NCBI GenBank assembly: GCA_001662655.1
Contig: KV460287.1
DNA: 64,000 nucleotides
Reading direction: 5' to 3' (one strand)
Source: Pseudogymnoascus verrucosus
Taxonomy: Eukaryota
The notes below the pieces were generated by a model. It was not told where the DNA came from and searched no databases. It was given only the letters and a program-made list of their open reading frames with translations. Both the position numbers and the translations under genes were made by a program. This document shows, piece by piece, positions 9,778-27,289 of this stretch; within the stretch, counting starts at the first letter, position 1, and each line of letters opens with the position of its first letter.

Positions 9778-11162
9778 ATGCTACCCTTCAAGCCGCCCCT
9801 GCGAGCGTTGATGCTCTTCGTCGCCGTCTCGACTGCCTTCCTCTACTTCGCCCTCTACCGCCACGACTTAGATTACATCACGGCCAAGATCCTCCCCCTT
9901 GGGAAGACAGATAAGCTTCCCGAGGGCACCAACCTCGACGACAAGGCGTCGTTCATTCAGGCCTTCCTTGAGCATGAGATTGATGGCCCCTTCGACCCGG
10001 CGCCGATACAGAAGGTCTGCGCGAGCAAGAAATGGAATGACAACTTGACTATTGTCTGTGGCGCGCCCCAGGGGGGAATTGGCAACGTCAGGAACGTCTT
10101 CCTGACCTGTTTGCGTTATGCCATTGAAGCAGGAGGTTGGTCCCCTAATCACAACCCTTAGCCAAACTAACCGTCCTAGGCGCTTTCGTAGTCCCGGAGA
10201 TAGTAGGGCGCGACGCCGACGACCTCTCCAAGCTCACAACAAACAACACCGTCCCCTTCGACTACTTCTTCGACCTCGAACACTTCAAGGCCTCCCTCGC
10301 ACTAGCCTGCCCTCAAATGGCCCTCCACACCACCGCCCCAGGCGACCTCTCTCTCAACCCCCCCATCCACCTCTCCCCCCAACACCTCCTGTCCGAAACC
10401 TTCGCCGCGACCGTGATCCTCCGCCCCGAGAAATGGCGCCCCGCCTTCGACGACTGGCTCTCCGAGCACCCCCCTATCTCCCCCGGCCGCTCCACCATCT
10501 CCCTCGCAACCCCCCTCCTCAACTACCCCATCTACTCCGACCCCGCCCCATTCATGACCTCCTTCGGGCGCCTCCTCCGCATCCGCGAGCCGTCGCGCCG
10601 CCTCGCCGCTGCAGCCGTCCACGCCTTACGCACTAAACACAATATCCCCATAACCCCCATCGGCATCACGTCCTCCGCCTTCTTCGGCGCGCACCTCCGC
10701 GTCGCCGCTGACGCCACAAAGGCCGGCTGGACGGGCTACGACCAGCAAGCTGCCTTCCTCCTCGACTTCGCGGAGGAGGTCAAGCTGAAGACGCTATACG
10801 TCACGTCTGAGTCCAAACCCGCTGAGACGTTCCGCGCGGACGCCACGAAGCGCGGCGCGGTCGCCCTGGCGAAGGAAGACCTCCTCGATGAGGCGGAGAC
10901 GAAGGCGCTGCGCGCTATGACGTGGGACCAGCAGGCGCTGGTGGATTACGAGGTCCTCCTCCGCGCGTCTTCGTTTGGGGGCATTGAGCTGAGCAGTTTT
11001 GCGTGGAATGTGGCGCTGAGACGGCATGTGGTTAGTAGGAGCGGGAGGAAGGCGTGGGAGGGCGTTAAAGAAGGGGGGGGGATGAATTTTAAGGATGAGT
11101 ATAGTAGGTTGAGGGGGGAGAAGGGGGCGCATCAGCTGTTTGTGGAGGCGATGTGGCCGTGA
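9778..11162 (+). CDS. Type II membrane O-fucosyltransferase-like (GT-B) glycosyltransferase
   Basis: N-terminal signal anchor; intron 10136-10179 (GTTGGT...CTAAC...TAG) joins the two ORFs in frame; motifs GGIGNVRN, FFGAHLR, LYVTS, ALVDYEVLLRASSFGG..SSF resemble POFUT/O-FucT-like enzymes. Confidence 0.7.
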
Positions 11163-12424
11163 GTGATTTTGTTTGGGATATAGGGATATGATCATATACA
11201 TTGGGTGTGGGTTAGGTAATGCCCATGAGGCGTTTTTTTATTTTCGTTTTTATTTTTGGGAGGGAGGGGATAGGAGGATGGAGAGGTTGGGGGGATGATG
11301 GGGTGTGGGTGGGTGGTGATGATGACTGTTATGTTGAGATGCCTGTCCTACAGGGCGATTTTTATATCACTATTTTGTGTGTACTATATCATTATACCGC
11401 TATATATATCACCATATATATATTCATATATAAGAAGGAATAGAAGCAAGCCGGTTTTGGTTACAGAACCCCTCGAAATTGAGGTATTGATGGGTTCACA
11501 TGGACTGAATTTGGCTGAGCACACGATGTTGGGGGGCATACGTTTTCCTCGATTGAAGGGGCGCACTTGAGCACATTGACGCGCGGCGCTCCACTTGACG
11601 GGAAATCGTTTAAAGCAAACAGCACGAAGAGGCATACGTACGTATTACAATATTATTTGCTCCCTCTTGCAAAGTTCCAAAACGAAATATTCCCGTGCTA
11701 TTCCATTACATGCCCTTGGTCGCCGAGCGTCATGGTGGTCTCGATCCCCCTCCGATTTCGGATTCTCACCTACCATGCACAGGTTGTAGTCACTAATTGC
11801 GGGTTTTCACCGATTGTGGGTTCTCGCCGATTAACGATTCTTGTCACTCAAATTTCTTGCTCCAGACATCCGCTTAGAACGTACCGAAGGATATTCGTTT
11901 AGTTTGCAAGGAGCGTCCTTGCGTTGGTCCAGGAAAACCGGCTGGATTCACATGCGATCTTCTTCTGTGTTTTTTCTGATACAACCCATTGTCTCCACTG
12001 CTGTCCTGCTGTAGTATCTTATATGGAACGCCGGTGGTCATTTTCGTCTTGTTGAATTTAATTCTTAATTTTACCCTTAACCTTTACATATTTATGGCCT
12101 TCCTAGGTTCTGCTCTGCACCGTGCCTGTCCTTTACATGCCGGGCTTTCACAGCATGCTTATCATTCTCGTGCTTCATTTCGGCGGCTATGATCTTGATG
12201 GTCTTGAGCTTCACAAGTTTATACTGAATCAATAGGAAAGATTATGAAGGTGGGTATTTAGCCATACATCCTTGTTCCTATACTGTCTGTTTAATCTGCT
12301 CGAGGCTCAATGATAATGAGATCCAACCCCCCCCCCAAATGCGCCATAACGCCGCCGCCTCATCCCCAACCAAATCAGTTACAAACATCCCTCCAAACGC
12401 CATCTCATTCCCAGCCCCATCCCA

Positions 12425-13000
12425 TCACAATCCAAACTTCCCAAGCACCCAAAGCGACACCTTCCGAGAAGCCACAGCCTGTAACTGTATCACCGTCATC
12501 AGCGCGAAGAATCCCGGGATGACACACGACGCCAGCACCACCACTGCCGCCCCAACCGCCACCATTTCCCACAGCTCCGCATTCCCATCTTTCCAAGTCG
12601 GCGCGCTGCACCGCTTCTTGGCCATCTGATCAATCTTCTCGCGGACTAGGTTGGCTTGGAAAGATTGGAGGTTGCGTCTCTCGCGTTTCGTAATCTCCTG
12701 CTCTTGCTCAAGCGCTGCTTTTTCTTGTGCTACTTGTGCTCTCTCGGATTCGAGCTCTTGGAGGGCCTGCAAGAGAGCGGATTCGCGGTCGAGGAGGCTG
12801 GCTAGGCCGTTGTGCTCGAAGGGGGTGGAGAAGACGTCGGAGGGGGTGGGGGGGAGGAGGGAGGAGGCCCAGCTGATGGTCGAGGAGGCGGGGCTGCTGG
12901 GGCGTTCGGGGGGGGTGGGTGGTGGTGGGTTATAAGGCGAGGGTATTATTGGTAGTGGGTTGTCAGACAAGGGCGTGGGTGGTGGTGGGTTTTCAGACAT
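12425..13000 (-). CDS. Array member 1: P/S-rich N-terminus, coiled coil, C-terminal TM (191 aa)
   Basis: ATG ORF; heptad-rich LLDRESALLQALQELESERAQVAQEKAALEQEQ; hydrophobic tail MVAVGAAVVVLASCVIPGFFALMTVI. Confidence 0.8.
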   Translation of the reverse strand: MSENPPPPTPLSDNPLPIIPSPYNPPPPTPPERPSSPASSTISWASSLLPPTPSDVFSTPFEHNGLASLLDRESALLQALQELESERAQVAQEKAALEQEQEITKRERRNLQSFQANLVREKIDQMAKKRCSAPTWKDGNAELWEMVAVGAAVVVLASCVIPGFFALMTVIQLQAVASRKVSLWVLGKFGL

Positions 13001-13180
13001 AGCTGCAATAGTTGTATTTGCGCTTTAGTATGTCTGTGTTTAATTCTTGATGTGGAGTTTTGATATGGCAGTGTTCTGGGCGGTATTCCAGGCGGTATTT
13101 TAACGGAAAAGGGAGGGATACGTCCCGGAAATGGAGGTGGGGTGATATAGAAACAAAATGAGAACGGAAGATATGATGGG

Positions 13181-13250
13181 CTCATTCACTAGTACGACGC
13201 ATTTATTAAGTTTGACAGCTACTGCATTTAGTCTTATAACCTCGTACCTA
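13181..13250. promoter_or_regulatory. Conserved intergenic element of the array (reference copy)
   Basis: ATTCACTAGTACGACGCATTTATTAAGTTTGACAGCTACTGCATTTAGTCTTATAA; related copies near 14011, 14931, 15711, 16061, 16731, 17871, 18711, 19451, 20031, 20141, 20411, 22761 and 23271. Confidence 0.65.
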
Positions 13251-13344
13251 GCCAGCAACTATTCCTCGTCTCCGTAATATATTATGGTTAGCCAAAAACA
13301 GGCCTCCCGTGCCCCTTAACGCCACATCATGCCTTTCCCCATCA

Positions 13345-13797
13345 TCAACCCACCACCTGGACAGCCCATCTCAGCATTCTCATACACGCCACCCATTGTG
13401 CAGAGAACAACGAGAGGGCTATGAATATCGCCGGCATGATGAACAATACGAATGCCGCCGCACCCATCGCGCTGTATATCTCCTTGCGCTGGCGCTCCGC
13501 CTCCGTGGCCTTCTTTTGCTCCGTTGCTAGTTTGGCTTTGTTGCATGCGGACGCGAGCTCGTCACGTTCCTTCTGCAGCTCGTCCTTCTCGCGCTGTAGC
13601 TCAGCCTTTTCGCGCTCGAGCTTGGCGATTTCCCGTGCGAATTCCTGAGAGCCTTTTGAGAGCGCTGTTTCGGGCTGGTCTGGGCTGGTACTGGTTTCCT
13701 CGGTGCTGAGGGCGGGGGAGGTGGTGCGAGGGGTGGCGGGGATAGTGAAGGAGTTGTAACTGGAACTGGAGCTGCTGCTGGAGCTGGTTGGAGACAT
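13345..13797 (-). CDS. Array member 2: S/T-rich, coiled coil, C-terminal TM
   Basis: First ATG at 13797; ETALSKGSQEFAREIAKLEREKAELQREKDEL; TM AAAFVLFIMPAIFIALSLF; clear similarity to member 4. Confidence 0.8.
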   Translation of the reverse strand: MSPTSSSSSSSSSYNSFTIPATPRTTSPALSTEETSTSPDQPETALSKGSQEFAREIAKLEREKAELQREKDELQKERDELASACNKAKLATEQKKATEAERQRKEIYSAMGAAAFVLFIMPAIFIALSLFSAQWVACMRMLRWAVQVVG

Positions 13798-14192
13798 GGT
13801 CCTGCTGGGCCGCAAAGAAGCCGAGGTTGGTGGGAGGCGAAGAGACAGGGTAGTTGATATTATTTATTTGGGGGTTTGAGTGTTTGTGGTCTACTGAGAT
13901 GCTACGTTGGTATTCCGGGTCGGCATTTAAGTATGAAAAAAGAGGAAGAGGGGGAAAGAAATGTATAGGGGATATAATAATGGAATGAGAATATAAGATG
14001 TGATAGACTAAATTAATTCACTAGAACGACGCTTTTATTGTAGTTTGACAGCTACTGCATTTAGTCTCATAAGCTCATACTATAGTCGGTAGGCGTTTCG
14101 CATCTTGGATCTGCTCTATGATAAGTGATAGCGGGCTAAAAACATCGTCTCTTCCGTGTCCCTGGCGCCATGCATGTCCACCTTCTTCTCGA

Positions 14193-14753
14193 TCACCGGC
14201 TGACCGCGGCGACTCCCCAAGACACCATCCTCCAACCTATCGCCACTTCCGTCGCGACCACTGTAACTCCGAGCGATACCAACGGGATGTAAAGCAACGC
14301 AGCTGTTACGGCCTTCATCACTGCACCCTTGCTGTGAGAATATAGCTCTTTGAGGTTCTCCATCAACAATTCCAACTTCTTCTCCCATTCTTCCAGACAA
14401 GCACGTTCTTCCTTGCATTTCTCTGCGGCCTTTTTCTCCGCTGCATTCAGCGCCACCATATCGCGCTTCAGCTCCTCTATCTTCAGCTCCAGCTCGGCCT
14501 TCTTGCTCTTGAGGTCTGCGTAGTCTCGCTCCAGTTGGGAAATTTCGCCCACGATGTCTTTGGTGGCCTCGTCTAGGGCAATTGTTTTGTGGTAGAGGCT
14601 AGTGGGGGTTGCCTCATTGCCGGGAGTTGGAGAAGCGCCGCCGGGGGTGAGGAGGGTGGTGGAGTGGATGGAGCTGGAGGAGGTGGAGCGGGATGAAGTG
14701 GTGTGGCCGGTGGGTGATGGAGAACTCGGGTTTGGTGGTGGGTGTGGAGACAT
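14193..14753 (-). CDS. Array member 3: S/P/T-rich, coiled coil, C-terminal TM
   Basis: ATG at 14753 (MSPHPPP); long coiled coil; TM ALLYIPLVSLGVTVVATEVAIGWRMVSW, similar to member 4's FLAIPVVALGSTLISVEAVGAWRMFVW. Confidence 0.8.
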   Translation of the reverse strand: MSPHPPPNPSSPSPTGHTTSSRSTSSSSIHSTTLLTPGGASPTPGNEATPTSLYHKTIALDEATKDIVGEISQLERDYADLKSKKAELELKIEELKRDMVALNAAEKKAAEKCKEERACLEEWEKKLELLMENLKELYSHSKGAVMKAVTAALLYIPLVSLGVTVVATEVAIGWRMVSWGVAAVSR

Positions 14754-15084
14754 GGTGCTCAAATTTGTGTGTTTGTGTGGTTTGTGGTTGGTATGGCTGT
14801 AATCTAATGAACTGATATGTTGGTATTCTAGGGCGATGTCTAGGTACGTAAAAAGACAAAGAGAAAGAGGGCAATCAGAAATTGGGGACGGAAATATTGG
14901 AACAGAGTGAGAACGGAAGGTACGATGGACTAATTCTGCAGTACGACGTTTTTAATAAATTTGGCAGCTACTGCATTTAGTCTAACAATCTGGTACTATA
15001 GTCGGCTCCAGTTTCGCATCTTAGATCTTCTCAGTAACACACGATTATGGCTCCAAAAACAAATCCTTAATGCCATCTTATGCC

Positions 15085-15556
15085 CTAATGACCGGCCGCC
15101 GCCGCTATAGCCCAAACAAACATTCTCCAGGCCCCCACCGCCTCCACCGATATCAATGTGGAGCCCAGGGCCACTACCGGGATGGCAAGGAAGACGATCG
15201 CCGCTATGAACACGCCCTCCCATAGACGTTCCATCTCCTTGGTCCTCTTCTGCTTAACCGCCAGAGTTACCTTGTCCGTTGCGGCTGCGAACTCGTCTTT
15301 CTCGCGCTGAAACTCAGCCTTCTTGAGAAAGAAGGCCGCTTTTTCGATCGCGAGCTCCTTGGAAGCCTTGGAGAGCGCTGTTTCGCGTTGGCGAAGCTTG
15401 ATTTGGGCCATCTCGTAGCTGGGGGTTGGAGAGGTATCGCGGGGGGTGAACGGGCTGGTGTTAAACCGGGTAGAGCTGGTGGAGCTGGTGGACGTGGAGC
15501 GGCAGGTGCGGCTGCTTGGACTTGGGCTTGGGGAGCGAATGAGGGTGAGGAGACAT
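15085..15556 (-). pseudogene. Array member 4, frameshifted near the N-terminus (or N-terminally shortened gene 15411-15085)
   Basis: ATG at 15556 reads MSPHP (identical to the start of member 3) but is 1 nt out of frame with IRSPSPSPSSRTCRSTST...YEMAQIKLRQRETALSK. Confidence 0.65.
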
Positions 15557-15762
15557 GGATGTGGTGATTTTATATGTTGGATGAGATGTTGAGATGGTGA
15601 TATGGTGTTGAAACGTTCGTAGTTGGTATTCCAGATCTGTACGGGTAGTAGAGAACGAAAGGGGAGAGAAGGGAATATATATACAAAACGAAAATGGAAG
15701 GTGCGATGGGTTTGTTCTCTAGTATGATACTTTTATTAGAGTTTGACAGTTACTCCATTTGG

Positions 15763-15942
15763 CTAGTGGCGGACCGCCCCTTCCTTAGCAGCCATGTCCG
15801 TGTGTATCGCACTTTCCATTCGTCGCCCCTTTCCTGTCACAATCATCTCCATACGCCATCGCCCCATCAATTAATAATTAATTTCTGGGTTTTCCACTGG
15901 TAGGTTTGGGTCGGAGTGTGGCGGAGGAGGCGGTTGCGCCAT
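15763..15942 (-). pseudogene. Array relic 5
   Basis: ACCATGG start, MAQPPPPPHSDPNLPVENPEINY then TAA (15873-15871); has its own copy of the conserved element (16061-16130) and the TTGGTATT motif. Confidence 0.5.
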
Positions 15943-16189
15943 GGTGGCAGGGTTGTGTTGAATTGGCGAATTGGTATTTTCAGGGGGTGTGTAGATGGAT
16001 AGTGAGAGAATCGAAGCAGCGAGAGCAATAGAGAGGGTTGTAGAAATGGAATGGTGGCGTGAAATGGACTGATTTCATGATATTATTAATATTTGATTAT
16101 ACTGCGCCTAGTCTCAAACCCTCACGCCACATAGAACTCCCCAAACGTCCGGCCATCTCGAATTATCCGCGATGCAACAAGCTGTCTTC

Positions 16190-16612
16190 CTCGTCACCAC
16201 CGCCACAAATCAACAACAAGTCGTGGACCGCATCGCCGCAGCTGCAGCCACAGTCCCAGTCCATACCGCCGTCAAGAACCAAACTAGACAGCCCAGCAGA
16301 AACTCACTCGCGGCTTATTACCCCACTTCTTCCCCATCTCCTTCCCCCTCTCATTTTCCAACTTCCTAATTTCCTTCTCAATCTTCTTCATCTCCTTCTT
16401 GCTCTCTTTCTCCCTCTTGTCGCCCTTTTTTTCTCTATCTTCTTCTCCTCGTCTATCTCCTCGTTGAGCTCCCTCTCCTTTCGGATGCGATTAATCTCAT
16501 GCACAGATAGATTGCTTTTATATATGAGCTCCTCGCTCTCTAACTGCATTTCGAGACGGCGGAGATTGAGTTGGGTGGAGATTGAAATGGTGGTTCGAGG
16601 TTCAGATTCCAT
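16190..16612 (-). pseudogene. Array member 6, multiply frameshifted
   Basis: QLNLRRLEMQLESEEL signature; the coiled coil continues in another frame after an A7 run at 16426-16432 (GDKREKESKKEMKKIEKEIRKLENE); the TM-like EFLLGCLVWFLTAVW is in a third frame. Confidence 0.6.
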
Positions 16613-16799
16613 GATGACAATGATTTTGTGTTGTTTAATGAGTTTCTGGGTTGCTGGTTCGATATTCTCGAGCGTTATATAGATATGAAGGTAAACAGGT
16701 CGTGGGTGAAAGTAATGTAAAGGGATGACACGGGCTTATTTGTAGTACGAATCTTTCATTAGCAACTTTATTTAGTCGCAAAACCTCACACCATGAAGA

Positions 16800-16940
16800 A
16801 ATAGGCCGCCAAGTATCGTACCAGAGCGATGGGGGCCGACTAGCAGTCCTTCTATACCCCCCAAGAATCCAAAGACCACACCGTTGATTAGGTTGTGGGT
16901 TTGATGGCTGGGATGATGGTTTAAATGGTTCAGAAATCAT
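16800..16940 (-). pseudogene. Possible array relic 7
   Basis: MISEPFKPSSQPSNPQPN start typical of the family; TTGGTATT motif near 16995 and a weak element copy at 17091-17156; no recognisable coiled coil. Confidence 0.35.
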
Positions 16941-17207
16941 TATGGGGAGTTGTGCGTTGTAGGTAACAAAAGAATTGCTTGATAGGTTGATCTGTTGGTA
17001 TTATATAGTAGCACCTAGACAATGAAAATAAAATGGAGGGTTGCAAAGGTAATTTGACAATGAAAACCGAATTGGGGGTGATGACATGTGAGAAAATGGG
17101 CTGATATTCCTACACAACACTCTCACTGCTACTTTAAATCTTAAAATCTCGTAGTCAGGTTACTCATTCCCTATGAGCGACCTAGACTGTACATCCTCTC
17201 TAATAAA

Positions 17208-17727
17208 CTAGATAACATTCTTCATAAACCAGATCAACACTATGACCAAAACACTGTGAAGGAAAATAACCACGAAAAGAGCAGCAATATCAATATCCCC
17301 TCGCCTATACCCATCGCAACTTCCATGCCCGCAATTTCTCCATCAGTTGGGGCCTCGTCCTCGGCGTCTGGTTTCCGAACTCAGACTTAAGGTCAGTTGA
17401 AAACTTCTGGTACTTGAGTTCGAGATCGTCTCTTCGCCGCTCGGCTTCGAGGGCCATTTTTCGCTGCATAATCTCAAAATCAGTCTTCTGTTTCTCTCGC
17501 TTGGCCTCAATATCTGCCTTGCGGCGCTCATATTTCATCTCCGCTTTATCGAGATTATGCTTGGCTCTGTAGAACTTGCACTTTAGTAGGGCCTCCTTGC
17601 TCTTGGACTTCAGCTCGGTTTTCTCAAGATCCAACTCGCGGTTGCGTAGGTTGATTTGGGCGTCATTAAGTGATGGCGGGGTTATAGGGGAGCTGGAGGT
17701 ACCAGGAGTGTGGGTGTAAGGGGCCAT
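17208..17727 (-). CDS. Array member 8: coiled-coil ORF 17727-17305 with its TM tail displaced out of frame
   Basis: AQINLRNRELDLEKTEL signature; the hydrophobic DIDIAALFVVIFLHSVLVIVLIWFMKNVI* lies just past the stop in another frame (ends 17208). Confidence 0.65.
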
Positions 17728-17996
17728 TGTGGTGGTGATCGTGTATTTGTAGTTTGTAGTTTAGTAATTTAGTGAGGTTGTTGGTCGGTCTGTTGTTATA
17801 TTCTGCGGTATCTAGATGGGAAGACGAGAAATGGGGCAAGGGCAGATATAAGAAAATAATGAAATCGAAAATGAGCTAATATTTAGCACACCGCGTTATT
17901 AAGTTTAGTCACTATTGCGCTTAGTCTTAAAACCACACGCTATGAGAAACTACGTTTTTACAAAGAATCCATAGATTTTCCATTTCTAAAAAAAAC

Positions 17997-18587
17997 TCAG
18001 TTACAACCAACAATCCAACATTCCATCATACCTATTGGAATAGTCATCACCATTGCGAAAGCCACGAAAAGAAGAACAATTGCGGAAAAAGCTAAAATCA
18101 CTAGTATTATCACACCCACGACATTCCCTATATCACTCCACTTCCAACCCTTGGATAGACTGTGCTGTGGTACACTATGCGTGTGTGTATGGTCGGTGGC
18201 TTTGTGCTTCGTCTCAAGCTGGACCTTCTTACGTCCAATCTCAATATCTATCTTCTCCTTCTGTAGCCTGAGATCAAACTCCTGTTTGTATTGTTTAAGC
18301 TCGAGTTCGGCTTTCTCGGCCTTGAACTTGATCTCTGCTTTTTCTAGCTCCATCTCGTGGTAGCGGAGGGTTATTTGGTGGTCTCGTTTCGAGCATTCAC
18401 AAGAAGACATGGAGGGCGCGCCAGAAATAGTTTCCGAGCTGGTAGAACTATTGTAGTCGGTGTATATGCTGGAGCTGCTAAGGCTGGCGGTAATGTTTCC
18501 TAAGGCGTTGCTATGAGATGAGGGTTGTTCCTAGGATGTTGGGTTTGGTGATGGGTGAAATGGGTTTGTTAAAGGGCGAGGACTCAT
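17997..18587 (-). pseudogene. Array member 9 with an in-frame TAG in the N-terminal part (downstream ORF 18410-17997 intact)
   Basis: ATG 18587 is in frame with 18410; TAG at 18533-18531; QITLRYHEMELEKAEI signature; long TM VVGVIILVILAFSAIVLLFVAFAMVM. Confidence 0.65.
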
Positions 18588-18885
18588 AGTAGTAGATACT
18601 ATGTTCGCAGTGTAATGTGTTAAAGGATTTATATGTCAATCTATGAGTATTATAGAGTGGTATGTTATTAGTGTGAGAAGAATATTAGGAATATATGAGA
18701 CAGGAGGAAGTAAGCTAGTCATTAGCCGGCTTATTAAAGTTTAGCTAATGAAGCACTTAGTCTCAAAATACTCACGCCATTATAAAGGCAGACATATGGC
18801 AAATCAAATCTAATTCATCTTTCATTTTCCCTTCTAGGCAACTCACTTAGCCTACTCATTAGCTCCCACCAGTTCAATACGGCAT

Positions 18886-19347
18886 CTACTTAGGCGCAGC
18901 TGCAGCCGACAGCGCCTTGCTCACCATAAAGAGCACAGCGAGCATAAAACACCCTATGCCTCCTATCAATTGACCCGCACCATCCGAAATCCCCTCATTG
19001 TGTACCTTGAGCTCACGCTCGCTTTTATGATAGATGCCCTCTGACCGGATCTTCTGGGGCCTGTGCTCGAGCTCGGCCTTATTAAAGCTGGACCGGAGCT
19101 GAAATATCTGAAGCTTGTGGTCAAGCTCTGCCTTTCCGAGAGCCATCTCCTTGCAGCGAAGCATGATTTTGGATCTGTCATTTTTATTTTCTGAGTTAGA
19201 GAGGCGAGTCTTGTGATTGGGCCCAGAGACACTAGAGCTGTTGGAGTCCGTGGTACTACTAGGACTTCTAGGCTGTGGATCAGCGGCATAACCGATAGGA
19301 GATTGGCTTGATAGGCGGTGCGAGGTTGTTAAGGGTTGATCAGCCAT
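18886..19347 (-). CDS. Array member 10 (153 aa)
   Basis: KIMLRCKEMALGKAEL signature; C-terminal TM LIGGIGCFMLAVLFMV; N-terminus similar to member 9 (QPLT/RPLT, TDSNSS/TDYNSS). Confidence 0.75.
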   Translation of the reverse strand: MADQPLTTSHRLSSQSPIGYAADPQPRSPSSTTDSNSSSVSGPNHKTRLSNSENKNDRSKIMLRCKEMALGKAELDHKLQIFQLRSSFNKAELEHRPQKIRSEGIYHKSERELKVHNEGISDGAGQLIGGIGCFMLAVLFMVSKALSAAAAPK

Positions 19348-19542
19348 GGTGGTGGGTATTCCTTCTGTAACTCAGTAAGCTAATGGGTTGAGTGTTTAAA
19401 ATCGTATGCGAAGAGGCCGATAAGGCGAGTGTATGATATGAGAAACGCGGAATGGGGCTAATTTTAGCCTACTTACTAAAGTTTGACAGCTCATTGTCAA
19501 GCCATGCAAGTCACGCACATCTGTCATCGAACATCCTGTTCA

Positions 19543-19890
19543 TCAGGCCTCACAAAACAACTCTCTAGTTCCATAATTAACATAAAGCCGTCCTATGCAA
19601 AATCCTTTAACGTTTCCACCAATAGATAATTGCGAACACCACAATGAGTGCAGCAAGGACAACGCTAGCACTTTCCTCGCGCTCTTTTTTTTCCCTCGCT
19701 GTCTGGATTTCCTGCTTTCGTATCTGGAGACTAAGTTCGTCATTCTGTAGCCGGTATATTCCCGACGAAGGCGGATCCCATCGTGTGTGAGACCGTATGG
19801 AGGCGATGTCCTCGGTGTTTGAAGGGCTGCTGCTGAGTGGACTGGTGACAACTGTAGCGTAGACTTGTTCGTACTTCTAGGAGTACTCAT
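19543..19890 (-). CDS. Array member 11, degenerate (115 aa)
   Basis: S/T/P-rich start, GIRLRRE at the signature position, short hydrophobic VLALSLLHSLW; element copy at 20031-20090. Confidence 0.5.
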   Translation of the reverse strand: MSTPRSTNKSTLQLSPVHSAAALQTPRTSPPYGLTHDGIRLRREYTGYRMTNLVSRYESRKSRQRGKKKSARKVLALSLLHSLWCSQLSIGGNVKGFCIGRLYVNYGTRELFCEA

Positions 19891-20608
19891 GGTGAATAGT
19901 CAGAAGATTTAGCAAGTTGCAATTCCGTATGGAGTTTTGGAATGTTGCAGTTTTTCGTTTCTTGTTGCTAGAGGGAAGCGGGGTAGAATAAGGAAGTGAG
20001 AGAAAGCAACAGAAACAAAATGGGGATGTGGCGTTAAATTCTCATTGGTTTATTAGCATTTGACAGTTGTATTATCTTACACTGCCAACCTATAGTAGTA
20101 TTTCCTATTTTAATAGGAAATTATCTGATCTTTGCGCTTTTATTGAAGCGTGACCACTGCCGCACTTGGTCTCAAAACCTCATGCCACGAAGAAATTATA
20201 TACGTTGCTCATTCCTTCCAAACTTATTTACGCCCGGGCCCAATAATCTATCATTCTATCCACCGGAATAGTTATGACGAGCAATATTGGGAAGTCGCAC
20301 TAAATTCTCACTCGTTCATCAAAACATTTTGGCAGAGCGCAACTCCAAATTTCGAGCTATATACACCACGACATTAAAATGTAAATCCACACCCACATGC
20401 GCGTATAGCCATTTATTTGTCTAGCAGCAGTTACGTTCATTCAGTCTTACAATGTCAAGCTATAATAGTATTTCCTTTTATACACTCCGCTTTATCAAAC
20501 TCCCATTGAAATCAAACCCCATCACATGAATCGAATTTACCCCATCTATATAATCAAGACCTCAACCAATCCAAGGAGGTCTATTAACGGAATTTACCTC
20601 TTCTACCT

Positions 20609-21217
20609 TTACGTTACCGACATCATCCAGAGTGCAAGCGAAACAAAGGCAGCTAATATTGTGGCGTCGGTATTCCCCGACAGGGCCGCACGACTGTATC
20701 TCACGTCTTTTCCTGGGTAGGGATGTATAGTCTCTTTCACGTTCTCTCGCAAGGGCACATCAGGGCGCCTCTTATCCCCATTTCCTTTCTCGTTCTCATT
20801 CAATGGTGTATATGAGTGCGCCCCATCCTCCTTTGTCTTCGTTCTCATATCGTCCTTTGCCTTCTCCCATTTTCGTTTCATATCAGCTTTTTTCGTCGCC
20901 CATTTCCGTTTGATGTCCCCCTTTTTTGTCTTCCATTTCCATTCCCCGTCTTCCTTGCAAATCTCGCGTTTTGGTGTCAGGAGATTCAGCTCTTCTGTTT
21001 CCTTTATGTGACGTTCACACTGACAGTTGAGCTTTTCGTCGTCGTATGTAGACTGTCTTGGGTTGATGCCGGGCTTGTCCTTTTCCAGTGCGGTATGTTT
21101 GCACTGAAGGGTGGCCCCATCGTATTGGAGGCACGACGAGGGTGTCTGTGCTGTGGCGGGTGTGGAGTATGGGGGAGGTGGAGACTGTGGTCCAGATTCG
21201 GGTTTGCTTTGAGACAT
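20609..21217 (-). CDS. Array member 12 (202 aa) with PPPY motif
   Basis: SPPPPYS N-terminus; K/W-rich repeated helix (KWKTKKGDIKR/KWATKKADMKR/KWEKAKDDMRT); terminal TM ILAAFVSLALWMMSV. Confidence 0.7.
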   Translation of the reverse strand: MSQSKPESGPQSPPPPYSTPATAQTPSSCLQYDGATLQCKHTALEKDKPGINPRQSTYDDEKLNCQCERHIKETEELNLLTPKREICKEDGEWKWKTKKGDIKRKWATKKADMKRKWEKAKDDMRTKTKEDGAHSYTPLNENEKGNGDKRRPDVPLRENVKETIHPYPGKDVRYSRAALSGNTDATILAAFVSLALWMMSVT

Positions 21218-21614
21218 GGCAATAGTGATGGGTTTGCCGTTTAAGCGGCGTTTATAGCACTTTGAGTGTGGTTGTTTTTGAGATTGTGTATTGAGATTGC
21301 GTATGGAGACAAAAGTAAGGGAAAGGAAGAAAGGGAACGCGAGAGAACAGCAAGGGATAGAGCGAAAAGGCGACGAAAGTGAAACTACAAAGGGGCCAAT
21401 CTTAAGTATATTGTCAAAACTTGGCCATTGTAATTAATATTATCATATCAGACCATGCATCATGAGATTCAATCGTACATCTCGTTTGCCAAACTCCCAC
21501 TAAGAAAAATTCCACTAGAAGAGTCCAGTTAAATCCAGTTAAATCCTGCCTACGTCAAAGTTTGCCTCAACCAATCCAAGATGATCGAATGATAGTATGA
21601 CCCACGATCCACGA

Positions 21615-22121
21615 CTAAATAAACAGTATTTTGAAGGTAACGACAACCACAAATCCCATTAACAGCCATACACCCGTCTCTAGTTTATCTGCCAGTCGTT
21701 TCCGGCACGCAAGTCCAAGCTCCGCACGCTCAAGGTCAACCTGTGATCGTCGGACAGCAATATTCTTGTAGATTTCCTTGGTTGATGGCTGATTTTCAGT
21801 CTGGGTAGTTGATGGGTTGACAGTAGTGGGCTGTGGTGACTGCGGTGTTGGATGTAGTGGACGCTGTGATGTGGTTTGCGGCAGTATAGTCTCCGCTGTA
21901 GTCTGCGGTGCAGTCGGTGGTGCGGTCCGTGGTACAAATGGCGGGATATGCTGCGGTACAAACACAAATCTATAATCCCCTGTGGGCTGTAGTGTGGGAG
22001 GAGGTGTAGACACGGGTGTATTCTCAGGTGTAGACTGCGGTGTAAGCATCGGTGTGGATGCCAGAGACGACTCAGGCATGGACTCCGGTGATGGTTCAAA
22101 TGGGCTTCGGTAGACGGCCAT
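21615..22121 (-). CDS. Array member 13 (168 aa)
   Basis: Long P/T/Q-rich region, NIAVRRSQVDLERAEL signature, terminal TM VWLLMGFVVVVTFKILFI. Confidence 0.75.
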   Translation of the reverse strand: MAVYRSPFEPSPESMPESSLASTPMLTPQSTPENTPVSTPPPTLQPTGDYRFVFVPQHIPPFVPRTAPPTAPQTTAETILPQTTSQRPLHPTPQSPQPTTVNPSTTQTENQPSTKEIYKNIAVRRSQVDLERAELGLACRKRLADKLETGVWLLMGFVVVVTFKILFI

Positions 22122-22393
22122 GGCGGAGAGTTTGAAGCGCTGTCAATTTTTGTGAAGCAAAGGAGATTTGAGGTATTGTATGAGCGATATCACAGAAGAG
22201 ACGGGAAGGACGAGGTGAAGAAAGATGAAGAGGAAGGGTAATGAAATGGGAATGTGGAAAGAGTCTTATTTCTAATACCAGAAAGCCTCAGAGTATCAGA
22301 CCATGAACAGGGCATATAATTTATAGTTCTTACCCCATGCACTTTCAAATCAAAATCTCCCAAACAACCCCTGCCTATTCATTGATACAAATA

Positions 22394-22693
22394 TTAAGCC
22401 CTTGTCCCAAAAACCGTGTTGCCCACCCAGGCCACAAATATCATGAAAAGGACCCCGCTAAAACTAAATAAGGACAAAACTAACACACGAACAATACTAT
22501 TTTCGATTATGCGCGCCCATCCTGTTCTTGGGGGAGCCTCGTTCTGGTCGAGCTGTAGTTGTACTTGTTGGAGCTGGATCTCTTCTGGTGTAGGGGCTAG
22601 TCTAATGGTTCCTGCTGTATGGGGTGTTGCTGGCTGGGTGGCTGTGGAGTTTGCTGACTCGTTTGTTCTTTGAGGGGTTGACATGTCTTCCAT
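22394..22693 (-). CDS. Array member 14 (99 aa)
   Basis: EIQLQQVQLQLDQNE; TM VLVLSLFSFSGVLFMIFVAWVG. Confidence 0.7.
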   Translation of the reverse strand: MEDMSTPQRTNESANSTATQPATPHTAGTIRLAPTPEEIQLQQVQLQLDQNEAPPRTGWARIIENSIVRVLVLSLFSFSGVLFMIFVAWVGNTVFGTRA

Positions 22694-22890
22694 ATATGGC
22701 CTAGGTTTGCCTCATGCAGTGGAATAAGAGTGGTGTGAAGAGAATTGAAGGCGGGAGTGGGCTCATTTCTCAGGTCTTCAATAATTTAGTAGCTTCGTTT
22801 TAGTCTCAATAAGCAATAAGTCACACCATATGAATGGTGGTCAAAAAAATTGTATTATGGTCTATGAAGCACAAACTAAAAGAAGTTGGT

Positions 22891-23187
22891 TCAATCCTCG
22901 TGTGCTTTCGAACCCCCTGGTCTGATCATGTCGAAATAGAACCCCACGGCTCCTAGCGTGACTAAAGTAAGAACGAACAGGCACGCTAATCCCACAGTAC
23001 AGAGCGTCAAACGGTTCCGCCAAGGCTGGTCTCGGGGCGTGCGCTCAGCTTTCTCGAGGTCAAGTTCCCTGTTGCGAAGATCGATCGGCTCATGTGGGTA
23101 GTTTATCTCGTCTTGTGTAGGGGCGGGTTCACATGGCATGTAGTCCGACTGTGGATCGGCGCTCCTTGACCATTTGGAGGAAGCCAT
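22891..23187 (-). CDS. Array member 15
   Basis: ACCATGG start (MASSKW); PIDLRNRELDLEKAER (LRNRELDLEK identical to member 8); TM LCTVGLACLFVLTLVTLGAVGFYF. Confidence 0.75.
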   Translation of the reverse strand: MASSKWSRSADPQSDYMPCEPAPTQDEINYPHEPIDLRNRELDLEKAERTPRDQPWRNRLTLCTVGLACLFVLTLVTLGAVGFYFDMIRPGGSKAHED

Positions 23188-23405
23188 GGTGAAAAGGCGC
23201 ATGATTAGAGGGCTCTGTATTGTTCTGTGAAAACGACTATGAGAGGGAGAACGTCGAGAAAGGGCAGGTAGTAAGCTTAGTGTATTGTGCTTTCACTAAA
23301 TTAGCAACTTGTTTTAGTCCGGGTCCAAATAAGTCACACCATGTGAACAGCTTTCAATTGTTTATATACTTTAGGTAATTAAAATATAAAAACTCGATGC
23401 GTCAT

Positions 23406-23822
23406 TTATGTTCGGCCTGAGACAGTGTTCGGCACAGATCGTAGATGACCCGACCCGATCCGGATCATGATCCGGATCACGATCCGCCGAACACTGGCCT
23501 GAGAAGTCCTTTTTGTACTCAAATCATTATAACAACATACGCCGATGACCCCAAATATAAAGGCAACAGACAGCGTCATCGTGCCCAAGACAGCGACATG
23601 ACTAATATCCCACCAACGCTGCTCTCGAAATTGACGCTCGGCTTTCGCAAGCTCGATTTCCTGGTGTCGAAGATAGATCTGCGTCTGTCGATAGTGCATC
23701 TCATTGTACGTGAGATCACGTTCAGCGTGCTTTACTAGTTGGATAGTCGTACATTGAGACTGTGGAGGGTCGTCAGGGACTGGCTGCGGGGGTGTTTTAT
23801 GGGTGCTTTTGGAGGGAGCCAT
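23406..23822 (-). CDS. Array member 16
   Basis: ACCATGG start (MAPSKS); QIYLRHQEIELAKAER; TM VAVLGTMTLSVAFIFGVIGVCCY; close relative of member 15. Confidence 0.75.
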   Translation of the reverse strand: MAPSKSTHKTPPQPVPDDPPQSQCTTIQLVKHAERDLTYNEMHYRQTQIYLRHQEIELAKAERQFREQRWWDISHVAVLGTMTLSVAFIFGVIGVCCYNDLSTKRTSQASVRRIVIRIMIRIGSGHLRSVPNTVSGRT

Positions 23823-24194
23823 GGTGAAGGTGTTGGTGAGCAGAAGGTCTAGAATACTTCGTTTAGGAGATAAAGATAGGGTAAACAAAAGAGACAATAT
23901 AACAGGTGCAAGGAGGAGATACTGGGGAGATAGGAGAGGAGTATATGGGCTGATACCATCCACCCAAGCTAGCCTAGCCTCGAACCCTTACGCCATATGT
24001 ATCGAGGGTGGATGGGGAATGCTGCGTGCTTTTAAGAGTACACTTTCAGGGTTTGCTTGTTCTAGCATTGTGGCTAACCTAGATAGAGGAACTTGAGACC
24101 CTCTAGAGTAATTCTGATATAGTAATCTATATTTTTGATGCGGTGTCCGCGTATATATGTATAGCTTTATAAACCATATAGAAGCCCATGTGGA

Positions 24195-24650
24195 CTAACC
24201 ACTCTTATGGCAAGACTTAGTGCGGTTTACTACCACATAAACGATCAAATCCCACGCCAAAACTGCGCCCACAACGATGGCGGTGACACCAGCTAAACAT
24301 AACAGAAGCGTTCCGAAGAACTTGAAAATATTTTCGGGTGTTATGCAAGCGATAATCTGTTTGAATGGGATGCGATTGCAATGTTTTTTGACTGAGATGC
24401 GATTGCAGATCCCCTCATACCAGCTTAAAGAAGGCCTCACGGGCTGGATCAGGCCATTCTCTACATCGATCTCGAGCTGCTCCTGTAAATTTTCCCGTCT
24501 GAGTGCATCGTTACTCCCGGACCCAACATTATCGACCATTCGTAGGGACGAGTATTTTGGTGGGGGTGTAGTGGTTTTGTTTGTTGTTTCCGAACCGCAG
24601 GATTCCCAGTCTTCCTCTGCCGTTGGTTGGTGCCAGTTGGAGGATGACAT
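24195..24650 (-). CDS. Array member 17 (151 aa), PPKY motif, C-terminal TM
   Basis: EEDWES...TTTPPPKYSS...EIDVENG...TPENIFKFFG + TM; paralogous to member 18. Confidence 0.8.
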   Translation of the reverse strand: MSSSNWHQPTAEEDWESCGSETTNKTTTPPPKYSSLRMVDNVGSGSNDALRRENLQEQLEIDVENGLIQPVRPSLSWYEGICNRISVKKHCNRIPFKQIIACITPENIFKFFGTLLLCLAGVTAIVVGAVLAWDLIVYVVVNRTKSCHKSG

Positions 24651-25242
24651 GGAGTTTGGTGGATGAGCTTGGTTATGAGGAGAGCTTCAAGTGAGAGATT
24701 TGAATGACTTGTCAGGTAGGAGAAGGTTTAAGTGGTGCTAGGTGCTGGGTGCTTCCATTGAGGAAGGGCAGTCGAGTCAAGGAAGGAGAAGAAAGAAAGG
24801 AGAGAGCACAAATATGCAAACCAGAATATTATCATCGTTCGACGTTTACAGCATATGTTTAGAGCCGAAACTATGTTCTACGATTATATCATTAGATAGG
24901 TCGTAGTCGGCTGGTACCTGCTAGTTATCTGTCAATCTGTGGAAGTGCGACATTACGCCGCTCTCCCCCTAGCTTTGAACTAATGTACCAAACGCCCGCT
25001 TGCCCGCATCTTTGTGTGAACTTCAAAGGCAGCATCTTCACAATACCAATGTGTTGTATCCCGAAAACTTCAAGCCGCTTGTACCTAGGATGGACAGTAA
25101 ATGGTGTAGGCTTCATTTATGTGTGGTCTAGGAGTGAAATTTCAGGACTTGATTGTTATAGTATTGTAGCTACTCTAGATAGATTCTCATTGCGTTGGTT
25201 GTGCAAACATGGCAATATACAACAATGGATACCCTAAGTTCT

Positions 25243-25737
25243 CTAATCATTAATTCTCTGGCGGCTTTTTATCATCATAACTATACCATTCCACAAAAGC
25301 ATTCCTAGCATAATAGCGAGACTAAGGGCAACGACAAATAGGATGATTATTCCGAAGCTCTTGCAAATATTTTCAAGTGTGAGCACCCTGCCAATTTTAT
25401 GGATCCAGTTTTCACGAGGCTTTTTGAACATGCTCCAGCCGCTTTCGAGATCAATCTCGCGCTGTCGCCGTACCATATTCCCTCGGAGTTCGTAGCTGCT
25501 CCCGGTCTCGATATCCGCTGCTGTTTGAACGGAGGAGTATTCTGGAGGGGCTGTAGTGGGCTCTAAGTCTTCGTTTGGTGTTTCTGAGAGCTGGTCAGAG
25601 GACCCCGAATCATCATTTTGTGTTTCTGCGAGCTGATCGGAGGATTCTGCGCCTTCGTCTGTTGTTGCCATGAGCTGGTCAGAGGATTCCCAGTCTTGCT
25701 CCACCGTCGCCAAAGAAGGCCACTTAGAGGATGGCAT
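25243..25737 (-). CDS. Array member 18, PPEY motif, 3x14-aa acidic repeat, C-terminal TM
   Basis: ATG 25737 (MPSSKW); EQDWES...TTAPPEYSS...RRQREIDLESG...TLENICKSFG + TM. Confidence 0.8.
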   Translation of the reverse strand: MPSSKWPSLATVEQDWESSDQLMATTDEGAESSDQLAETQNDDSGSSDQLSETPNEDLEPTTAPPEYSSVQTAADIETGSSYELRGNMVRRQREIDLESGWSMFKKPRENWIHKIGRVLTLENICKSFGIIILFVVALSLAIMLGMLLWNGIVMMIKSRQRIND

Positions 25738-26263
25738 TTTGTTCGATGAAATAAGCTCGGCTGTTGAAAATGGATTCAAGTAAGAGCTTTGGGTGGCGTG
25801 GCTGGTGAGATGAGAACATTCGGGTGGTGCTGGGGTACTCTCGCTGAGGGTAGACAGCGAAGTAGATTATGGGTAGAGAAAAAATAAAGGACAAAAACGG
25901 GCACCATTGCAGGCCAATATTACCATCGTTTGATGCATACATAATGTGTTTAGCGTTGAAATTATATTTTTTATCACTTTATCATCTCATGACTTGATAG
26001 ATCATCGTTGGTCGGCTGTCAAAGATAAGGAACTAAGACGCTAGTTTGAACCAGCACCACTCGCGTCCCAATGGCGTCCAAAATTCCCGCCTTCCCGTAT
26101 CTCCGTGCACTACAGTAAATCGAGTTACACGGTTCAACCTCCACCTCAGTTCCCTTCTCGCTCAACATCTTCGCAATACCAACGCGTTTCATCACCAACG
26201 ACAACTGCAATACACGCAGTCTACTATCCTCGACAACAGATATATTCAAGTTGAATAGAAGCA

Positions 26264-26634
26264 ATGTGTCTCTCCGCCACCTGTGGAACCTGTCGTGAGT
26301 GCCATCTCCGGATCTCAATATCTGTTGGACACAGAACCATTACTTAAATAAGGGTTGAACTAGTAAACTAACTTTCCCAGAAAAGAAGACATGGTGGGGC
26401 TGTGGCTCGCATATCCCTTCCGTCATGGACAGCGTCCCTGAGACTGATCGCTGCAGTTGCGAGCCCAAGGGTTAGTTCAGCCTCCTCCCATACTCCCGTC
26501 TCCGACGTCTCTCTTCGTTCTCTGTCTCCTCTTTCATTCCTCGTTTCAATGAACAATAGCACCCGACAAAGCTAACACAGGCAGTCGATGTCGATGGGGC
26601 GAAATATCCCCCAAAAGCGGCGAGTAAGAACTGA
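26264..26634 (+). CDS. 56-aa Cys/His-rich microprotein (3 exons)
   Basis: Exons 26264-26294, 26381-26470, 26585-26634 with GTGAGT/GTTAGT donors, CTAAC branch points and CAG acceptors; MCLSATCGTCQKKTWWGCGSHIPSVMDSVPETDRCSCEPKVDVDGAKYPPKAASKN*. Confidence 0.85.
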
Positions 26635-27289
26635 TTCCCTGGTTGAGCTGGCATGGCATGGCGCTCATAGTGGGCATAGCGTTCTGGAGGGTGGTGAGGG
26701 GCGCGGTGGGGCTATAGAAACCAGCTGATACTGAGTGAAGGGGGCTATGGGTGGTGATGGTACCTTACCCACGGTCTGGTGTCATGTTCATATGGAGAAG
26801 TGCAGAGGGACAGTTATGTGAGGATTGGACGCGATGACGATGGAAACAATTCAACTCTACCCGAATACACTCTCTCTTCTCTGTCTCTATTGTGAGGATA
26901 CTCATATCCTATATGGGCGCAAATGAGGCAATGGTGGACGCCGGCAGCGTCGGATCTAACATATATGGTCATCACCATGACGGGCGCGAATTCAAGAGCC
27001 CCTAAAGAAGGGCAGCGACCCCAAGAAACCCGCGACACCCTACCCGCATACACAACCCCGCTCCTCTAAGAACCTCGATACTTCACCATATCCCATTCCA
27101 AATGTGACACAACCCAAGCCCATCATCAATTCTCCCCCGCATTCTGCCCCTCACCGCCCCACCATTCTGCCCTCTTCCACCGCCTTCACCCCCACCAAAT
27201 CCGTAAATTTCCACCAGGACCCCTCCAACCAGCCTCCCATACCAGCCATTTCAAAGCCCATCTCTCTGCAAAGAAACTCACGCGCGATC

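Follow-up and report, generated by a model that had tools for sequence, protein, structure and literature searches.

The window, that is, the whole stretch of 64,000 nucleotides of Pseudogymnoascus verrucosus DNA that was analysed, harbors a head-to-tail array of 18 units. With confidence that is about evenly balanced, we propose that these units form a family of small tail-anchored membrane proteins found only in Pseudogymnoascus, which multiplied in place and evolves by birth and death. What characterizes the family is a helix-start motif (I-x-L-R-x-x-E-x-x-L-E-K-A-E), together with a charged helix and a single transmembrane segment (TM) at the C-terminus.

Organization of the array

ORF calling on the window identified 16 minus-strand ORFs starting with ATG, of 74–202 aa, between positions 12425 and 25737. 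Together with two remnants, each made of a promoter element and a short N-terminal ORF, they amount to 18 units, which share one orientation and are each formed of one exon, as the original prediction of about 18 minus-strand units in tandem had it; the spacing it described was measured at 509–1327 nt from start to start. The units are the following.

m01, 12425–13000, minus strand: intact, 191 aa; the S/T/P-rich N-terminus leads to the motif and the charged helix, and the TM, which has a conserved I-P, is followed by a hydrophobic tail; the exact ORF is recorded as a protein from the same contig
m02, 13345–13797, minus strand: intact, 150 aa; the relative P0001 is 61% identical
m03, 14193–14753, minus strand: intact, 186 aa; sole member with a clear heptad pattern; the orthologue P0008 is 91% identical
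m04, 15085–15560, minus strand: core ORF at 15085–15411, 108 aa, starting at the Met that precedes the motif; the ancestral S/T/P N-terminus lies out of frame upstream
remnant 1, 15871–15942, minus strand: 23-codon ORF (MAQPPPPP...), preceded by a copy of the upstream element at 16047–16124; body deleted
m05, 16388–16612, minus strand: degenerate, with motif and charged helix, TM not in frame
remnant 2, 16635–16940, minus strand: a copy of the element stands above its S/P-rich start (MISEPFKPSSQPSNP...), and the ORF continues through the promoter element of m05
m06, 17232–17727, minus strand: broken; N-terminus, motif and helix share one frame, the TM is divided between two other frames
m07, 17997–18587, minus strand: core ORF at 17997–18410, 137 aa; ancestral start at 18587, then an in-frame stop at 18531–18533
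m08, 18886–19347, minus strand: intact, 153 aa; P0027, recorded from the same contig, is identical
m09, 19604–19890, minus strand: broken; the frame of the N-terminus differs from that of the motif-like stretch and TM (SASVVLAALIVVFAIIYWW)
m10, 20609–21217, minus strand: atypical, 202 aa; it has a motif-like stretch, a K/E/W-rich region of considerable length that includes 17 Pro+Gly, and a weak hydrophobic end (Kyte-Doolittle (KD) mean 1.62)
m11, 21615–22121, minus strand: 168 aa; the N-terminus is long and P/T-rich, the motif is present, and the TM lies at the extreme end
m12, 22394–22693, minus strand: 99 aa, short-linker type
m13, 22891–23202, minus strand: 103 aa, short-linker type with canonical motif (LRNRELDLEKAE)
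m14, 23406–23822, minus strand: 138 aa, short-linker type; a 74-nt inverted-repeat insertion (23423–23496) codes for the final residues
m15, 24195–24650, minus strand: 151 aa, array architecture; orthologues 85–89% identical
m16, 25243–25737, minus strand: 164 aa, paralogue of m15 (BLASTP E 1e-14); N-terminus with three 42-nt tandem repeats

The array is flanked by an O-FucT-like glycosyltransferase gene on one side and by RMT2 on the other, and a scan of the neighbouring ORFs indicated genes of housekeeping type. No unit was found beyond 12425–25737, and when all 907 stop-to-stop ORFs in the window were searched with the family profiles, matches were confined to array ORFs. In relatives, DNA comparison of the array region showed a collinear unit order. 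In sp. 05NY08 an m01-like gene and RMT2 share one contig at a distance of 11 locus tags, and in VKM F-4519 the order by locus tag is RMT2, m16, an m10-like gene, m03. The proposed check of synteny and copy number in relatives thus found the order preserved and the unit content variable.

Family relationships and taxonomic range

The m01–m04 profile finds m07, m08, m06 and m14, and the m07 profile finds m06, m14, m04 and m13, m06 being matched by the m07-clade profile at 1e-17; similarly, hhalign gave 99% for A3 against A5 and 93% for A5 against A6. Judged by these cross-profile and hhalign matches, m01–m04, m06–m08 and m11–m14 are one paralogous family. The idea of a single family across the array is supported for these members and not for m15/m16, m10, m09 and m05, which sequence statistics do not link to it: m15/m16 gave no cross matches by profile and 23% in the profile comparison with the rest, with which they have architecture alone in common, and m10 matched no clade profile and is connected only weakly by BLASTP (E 3e-4 to 4e-3). 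Paralogues are highly divergent in primary sequence, as had been noticed, with 14–28% identity to m01.

An HMMER scan of 1.84 billion protein representatives retrieved 23 relatives at E ≤0.001, all of 77–219 aa and of the same layout, and the named ones are all "hypothetical protein" of Pseudogymnoascus species; the m16 cluster comprises 12 proteins of at least 90% identity from several species of the genus. None of the 16 proteins reached a Pfam gathering cut-off (the best was APG6_N, with 22.1 bits where 45 are required); the matches below cut-off were all to generic coiled-coil models, and 7 of the 16 had no match at E ≤1. The best matches of a PDB profile search had E values of 0.087 or worse, the ESM Atlas yielded no relatives, metagenome scans no matches and an Rfam search no family. 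The original prediction recognized no named family, and this was borne out by the HMM search of proteomes and Pfam, with no Pfam, PDB or Rfam family obtained. As far as these searches reach, the family is new and restricted to the genus Pseudogymnoascus, and it is probably young.

Protein architecture

A hydrophobic N-terminus is absent in all 16 ORFs (top 8-aa KD mean over the first 35 aa at most 1.26), in agreement with the predicted lack of a signal peptide. One strong hydrophobic segment per ORF was found in 12 of the 16 as read (19-aa KD mean 2.06–3.32), with 0–21 residues behind it in 11 of these 12 and 42 in m14, because of the inserted element. As tail anchors are defined by a single transmembrane domain (TMD) with about 30 residues or fewer behind it, the single C-terminal segment and the lack of an N-terminal signal support a tail-anchor-type topology, as originally suggested. 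The C-terminal hydrophobic helix expected of nearly all units is thus present in 12 ORFs, and not in m05 (without TM), m06 and m09 (out of frame) or m10 (weak, 1.62).

The charged coiled coil that had been attributed to nearly all members fared less well. A long charged helix (63–119 aa) is limited to m01–m08, the distance from motif to TM being 28–64 aa in m11–m16. In a heptad a/d test against 500 shuffles, which considers a single register and ignores register shifts, m03 was clear (0/500), m01 and m02 were marginal (21/500 and 40/500), and the other 12 tested gave 103–500/500. Coiled coil and self-assembly are therefore putative, since heptad periodicity is absent in most members. The helix begins at the motif, including in the AF2 model of m03, where residues 1–50 are disordered and a single helix spans residues 51–185 (mean pLDDT 82). 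For m07, AF2 predicted helices at 3–78 and 87–134, corresponding to helical stalk, linker and membrane helix. To judge from the ORFs, the N-terminus is dispensable, as m04 and m07 lost it yet keep a core ORF, and in several relatives the ORF opens at the Met that precedes the motif.

Upstream element

A recurrent element precedes the proximal units at the following positions.

13146–13247, minus strand: upstream element of m01, about 100 nt, containing TAATAAA, about 200 nt ahead of the ATG
13974–14080, 14895–14996, 15679–15762, 16047–16124, 16715–16790: other copies of the element
17080–17153, 17859–17934, 18730–18768, 19456–19491, 20135–20184: other copies, continued

It was found ahead of 11 units, namely m01–m09 and the two remnants (7 copies significant by nhmmer and 4 weak, among them 17080–17153 of remnant 2, with E 0.39), and nhmmer did not find it ahead of m10–m16. 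The retention of a spacer element, initially described for the whole array, consequently applies to the 11 proximal units and not to m10–m16. Among m01–m04 the element is conserved at 71–81%, versus 58–67% for coding sequence, which fits a common regulation.

Damaged copies and divergence

Seven of the 18 units are damaged: m04, m05, m06, m07, m09 and the two remnants. The lesions of m04 (a frameshift) and m07 (an in-frame stop) both lie within the ancestral N-terminus; for m04, the relatives P0002 and P0010 have it in frame, and for m07, the relative P0005 reads through it. All four compared runs carry 2 extra letters at 15535 (m04), and three of four carry 1 extra letter at 16415 and 21 at 16368, in the m05 region. 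At 15875–15883 (remnant 1), three relatives have 373 letters versus 7 in the window, a 366-nt difference, and in the X6 run one contig joins 13227 to 14525 (m02 region) by 243 letters versus 1297 in the window. Frame-changing indels between relatives are located at 15535, 16415 and 13730/13754. Tandem birth-and-death evolution appears to be the best reading of these damaged units and differences in unit content.

The predicted fast evolution of the proteins is apparent against neighbouring RMT2: in the same genome pairs, identity was 91% for an array member versus 96% for RMT2, and 85% versus 94%, so that amino-acid divergence is 9–15% versus 4–6%, about twice. On account of this divergence and of the many broken copies, constraint per copy is low, as far as sequence comparison can tell. 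Constraint is nevertheless indicated by relatives at 40–65% identity, which keep open frames, the motif, an invariant P and near-invariant I and W. Among the differences listed in the X2 comparison, a hand count gave at least 9 in 1590 coding nt versus at least 11 in 739 intergenic nt; those listed in m01–m03 coding sequence are 6 nonsynonymous and 3 synonymous, and with so few differences weak constraint cannot be told apart from a lack of constraint.

RIP composition is recognized by a TpA/ApT ratio above 0.89 and a (CpA+TpG)/(ApC+GpT) ratio below 1.03. It is absent here, with 0.82 and 1.22 in the array and 0.76 and 1.20 in the rest of the window. The argument that such arrays are uncommon since RIP attacks duplications does not apply, because the paralogues are far too diverged for RIP targeting.

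Alternative explanations

The array could be largely functionless, a family of young orphan ORFs that was duplicated by unequal crossing-over and now decays by near-neutral drift, its architecture inherited and not selected. We consider this doubtful, even if the 7 damaged units, the differences in unit content and frames between close relatives, the 6:3 ratio of listed coding differences, the divergence relative to RMT2 and the lack of a known Pfam domain all speak for it. Indeed, neutral drift to 40–65% identity would destroy frames, but frames, motif, invariant Pro and near-invariant Trp survive at that distance, m16 is retained at 90% identity or more in several species, the upstream element outconserves the coding sequence, and the listed X2 differences are sparser in coding than in intergenic DNA. 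Tandem expansion, quick protein divergence, variable copy content and frequent pseudogenes would also be compatible with a genetic-conflict system (het allorecognition, toxin-antidote/killer or defence), in which these small, charged, one-TM proteins would be pore-forming or membrane-disturbing effectors diversifying under conflict. Such a role seems very improbable, and the allorecognition originally envisaged is disfavoured: in three relatives DNA differs by 1.0–3.9% in array-internal pieces versus 0.36–5.6% in pieces holding flanks, a range that includes the former, so that there is no hyper-polymorphism. Moreover, neither the members nor the scanned neighbouring ORFs contain a domain of conflict type (HET, NLR, gasdermin-like or other), the locus sits among housekeeping genes, and unit order is collinear in relatives.

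The topology itself may be read differently. The hydrophobic C-terminus reaches 30–41 aa in m01–m04, m07, m15 and m16, and in the m01–m04 clade it presents an invariant Pro and a conserved polar E/Q followed by a W-R-M-x-x-W segment; with such a length, it could form a hairpin, or combine a TM with an in-plane helix, instead of being a classical tail anchor. The proteins would then be monotopic, of the lipid-droplet or ER-shaping type, with a C-terminus dipping into one leaflet and both ends cytosolic. This is unlikely, given that AF2 draws one straight helix across the C-terminal region, the hydrophobic stretch of m08, m11 and m12 is only about 19–30 residues, the first 19–20 residues are enough for a TM (KD means 2.1–3.3), and no Pfam hairpin family was matched.

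Proposed explanation

Under the preferred reading of a tail-anchored family, the units would have multiplied in place, with unequal crossing-over between them as the simplest mechanism, and the element of about 100 nt would be the core promoter of the 11 proximal units, with TAATAAA as a TATA-like box. Each protein would consist of a disordered, dispensable S/T/P-rich N-terminus, a long helix starting at the motif and a very hydrophobic C-terminal segment, 0–21 residues from the end, which in the m01–m04 clade has an invariant I-P and W. Lacking a signal peptide, it would be released from the ribosome and then inserted post-translationally into ER-derived membranes by a GET/EMC-type route, as is general for tail-anchored proteins, the helix and the disordered tail facing the cytosol. 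The helix-start motif may be the site of a shared interaction, with a common partner or as a nucleus of self-assembly, and stalk length and N-terminus would be free to vary.

As to origin, we suggest, as a rather unlikely and tentative scenario, that the family arose in the Pseudogymnoascus lineage by de novo birth, or by divergence beyond recognition, with a C-terminal TMD acceptable to tail-anchor insertion pathways, and was then amplified to the array of 18 units, among which selection is now sorting the copies. That would make it a naturally occurring example of a membrane protein of de novo origin turned multigene family, where intact, N-terminally truncated and dead copies adjoin and with which a conserved promoter module travelled.

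Comparison with known systems

SNAREs and other tail-anchored coiled-coil proteins (syntaxins, Mff, SLMAP/Far10) have a cytosolic N-terminal region, a helical or coiled-coil segment, a single C-terminal anchor and no signal peptide, a layout that the array proteins match. Unlike SNAREs, the latter reach the cut-off of no SNARE Pfam model (syntaxin-12 gave E 0.52 in the PDB search) and their heptad pattern is clear only in m03. Known families of this type are conserved single genes and not genus-specific arrays. A second likeness is to young or de novo yeast proteins which are described as taxonomically restricted, small, domain-free and provided with a single C-terminal TMD (Houghton et al., bioRxiv 10.1101/2024.08.28.610198 = PMC11384008). 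As such, they resemble the array family, which is restricted, small, without known domain and with one C-terminal TMD. Unlike the yeast proteins as described there (PMC11384008), the array family, for which de novo origin is only putative, has a conserved helix motif, a long helical stalk, a genus-wide distribution and 18 tandem units.

Organization of the Array and Anatomy of its Members

The array lies between an O-FucT-like glycosyltransferase gene and RMT2 and comprises the following features:

12425-25737, minus strand: 16 ATG-ORFs of 74-202 aa, named m01 to m16 from 12425 upward
15871-15942, minus strand: remnant 1, a 23-codon ORF beneath its own upstream element
start at 16940, minus strand: remnant 2, an S/P-rich start beneath a weak copy of that element

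Start-to-start distances of the ORFs range from 509 to 1327 nt, and the 16 ORFs and two remnants together give the approximately 18 units of the original prediction. No further similar unit was found past either end of the array, and HMMs built from its members and run against the 907 stop-to-stop ORFs of the window matched array ORFs exclusively.

A hydrophobic N-terminus is missing in all 16 ORFs, in agreement with the proposed absence of signal peptides. Read by eye, the motif I-x-L-R-x-x-E-x-x-L-E-K-A-E precedes the helix in all units, and a search with the strict pattern matched m06, m07, m08 and m13. Between this motif and the C-terminal hydrophobic segment (TM), a charged helix extends over 63-119 residues in m01-m08, the motif-to-TM distance being merely 28-64 residues in m11-m16. 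The charged coiled coil predicted earlier was thus recovered as a long charged helix in m01-m08, but heptads were clear in m03 only, in a single-register test scored against shuffles. Similarly, the single C-terminal hydrophobic helix was retrieved as a strong segment in 12 of the 16 ORFs, though not in the other four; it is located 0-21 residues before the C-terminus, or 42 in m14. Across the m01-m04 clade and 17 relatives, the invariant or near-invariant positions comprise I-P within the TM and one Trp of the hydrophobic tail.

AlphaFold2, run with family alignments, predicted for m03 a disordered N-terminus followed by a single helix at 51-185 (mean pLDDT 82), and for m07 two helices (3-78 and 87-134) with a linker of low confidence between them. 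A complex prediction that paired residues 50-186 of m03 with themselves, run without controls, scored 0.02. The N-terminus of m16 harbors three tandem 42-nt repeats (25562-25695) that encode a repeated acidic peptide of the S-S-D-Q-L type. On the plus strand, a 201-aa ORF antisense to m05 (16077-16682) sits in a CT-rich low-complexity stretch and is probably spurious.

Kinship and Taxonomic Range

Profiles excluding the target linked m01-m04 to m07, m08, m06 and m14, and the m07 clade to m06, m14, m04 and m13. Comparison of clade profiles with hhalign gave a probability of 99% for A3 vs. A5 (E 8e-18) and 93% for A5 vs. A6 (E 3e-7), and a non-significant 23% for A6 vs. A7, the profile of m15/m16. 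These last two units are mutually paralogous (BLASTP E 1e-14) and are tied to the others by position, orientation and layout only. Units m05, m09 and m10 could not be scored, being too decayed or unusual.

When 1.84 billion representatives were scanned with a family profile in filter-only HMMER mode, 23 proteins reached E 0.001 or better; each measures 77-219 aa and has the same layout. The named relatives are all hypothetical proteins of Pseudogymnoascus, and the automatic name given to one JGI record among the relatives is clearly wrong. Metagenome scans with m15 and the relative protein P0030 as queries yielded no relative. As anticipated, no named family emerged from Pfam (no match reaching cut-off), PDB profiles (nothing below E 0.087), the ESM Atlas (no usable match to m07) or Rfam. 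Coiled-coil Pfam families such as APG6_N, ATG16 and FBF1 were rejected, every score being below cut-off. None of the titles listed by literature searches concerns this family, which might be undescribed.

Across many Pseudogymnoascus species, among them the bat white-nose pathogen P. destructans, RMT2 is 89-100% identical to that of the window, which places the window in this genus. No family member of P. destructans appeared among the named relatives, though its RMT2 is listed; a member may have escaped annotation, as small genes often do. Gene order relative to RMT2 is preserved in at least two named species, as judged from locus tags, and the neighbors of the array are housekeeping genes (O-FucT-like glycosyltransferase, RMT2, hexokinase, ribophorin I, Pol5, a rhodanese protein and Ssr4).

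The Upstream Element

In m01-m09 and in the two remnants, the ATG is preceded at a distance of approximately 200 nt by an element some 100 nt long with an invariant TAATAAA-like core. The retained spacer element of the original prediction therefore holds for these 11 proximal units but is absent before m10-m16, where pairs of units have shorter upstream and start-context pieces in common. Seven copies were significant with nhmmer and four weak, with no significant copy elsewhere in the window. Among m01-m04, the element is 71-81% identical, vs. 58-67% for coding and 59-66% for other non-coding sequence. Rfam had zero matches over 11000-27000, so the element is not a known RNA; it may represent a core promoter module that was duplicated along with the units and kept by selection.

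Damaged Units and Divergence

Seven of the 18 units are damaged, namely both remnants and the following ORFs:

m04: N-terminus lost through a frameshift
m05: TM missing
m06: TM split across two other frames
m07: in-frame stop 18 codons past the ancestral start
m09: N-terminus out of frame with motif and TM

At 15535, in the m04 N-terminus, all four aligned relatives carry two extra letters, and the relative proteins P0002 and P0010 read through; P0005 does so at the m07 stop. Both m04 and m07 retain a core ORF starting at a Met just ahead of the motif, as do several relatives, which suggests that the S/T/P-rich N-terminus can be dispensed with.

A further unit may have been lost from the long spacer above m09 (19900-20520), which contains duplicated pieces (20016-20053/20282-20319 and 20075-20112/20445-20482) and a second weak element copy (20427-20456).

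Identity to the window reaches 91% for m03 vs. 96% for RMT2 in VKM F-4519, 85% for m15 vs. 94% in one JGI contig and 99% for m08 vs. 99.6% in VKM F-103; in remoter relatives array members fall to 40-65%, while RMT2 remains at 89% or above. DNA from three relatives is collinear across the entire locus. Structural variation includes 15875-15883, where the window has 7 letters and three relatives 373, a contig of sequencing run X6 in which 243 letters replace 1297 at 13227-14525 (m02 and part of m03), and 144 nt missing in run X4 at 20366-20511, within the spacer above m09. Frame-changing indels occur among relatives at 15535, 16415 and 13730/13754. In run X2, where counts rest on 40 of about 1320 differences listed, the nine in the coding sequence of m01-m03 are six nonsynonymous and three synonymous, and a hand count of the listed differences gives a lower density in coding (9 in 1590 nt) than in intergenic sequence (11 in 739 nt). 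Run X10 provided eight contigs (233-437 nt, depth 2-6), in pieces within 12332-22952, on or beside m01, m03, m04, m05, m07 and m12-m13, which may represent either RNA or thin DNA coverage.

RIP and Possible Mobile Elements

RIP was rejected as the source of paralog divergence, since the indices of the array (TpA/ApT 0.82; (CpA+TpG)/(ApC+GpT) 1.22) are about the same as elsewhere in the window. The sole part with RIP-like composition is 62001-64000 (1.57 and 0.80, respectively; GC 0.37 at 62001-63000), which may be a transposon relic adjoining a CFEM-domain ORF (61277-62272).

The 3' end of m14 contains a 74-nt element (23423-23496) that codes for the unusual C-terminal extension of the protein; the element is bounded by perfect 11-nt inverted repeats (CAGTGTTCGGC) and has a palindrome inside. 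It looks like a multi-copy MITE-like element, because 23422/23423 and 23478/23479 are points at which several contigs of three relatives stop or fork, with a summed depth of 132 vs. about 50. One further arm of its repeat lies at 57129-57139.

Discussion

The sequence reveals a genuine family of helical membrane proteins of the tail-anchor type, confined to the genus and evolving by birth and death. The damage to its units invites a rival reading as a near-neutral, decaying array; nevertheless, constraint on the family seems weak but real, because frames, motif, Pro and Trp survive at 40-65% identity. Hairpin or monotopic proteins are the rival to a tail-anchored topology. A conflict system, including the allorecognition role suggested originally for such fast-evolving genes, is the least supported idea: in three relatives, array-internal pieces differ by 1.0-3.9% and flank-holding pieces by 0.36-5.6%, so the array is without excess polymorphism.

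If tail-anchored, the proteins would be inserted post-translationally into ER-derived membranes, with the stalk and disordered tail in the cytosol, and the helix-start motif could mediate an interaction common to the members or act as a site of nucleation. A single 13-kb locus holds 18 units of one lineage-restricted, putatively tail-anchored family, and many sequenced species of Pseudogymnoascus carry orthologous arrays; if expressed, the genes would form a compact natural series on the origin, integration and diversification of orphan membrane proteins. The locus also shows that old, strongly diverged tandem arrays can persist in a Pezizomycotina genome without RIP trace, and whether P. destructans has the array or not could be a straightforward marker for gene loss in comparisons. 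The mechanism proposed here for the array proteins would parallel what is reported for young yeast proteins with C-terminal TMDs (Houghton et al., PMC11384008).
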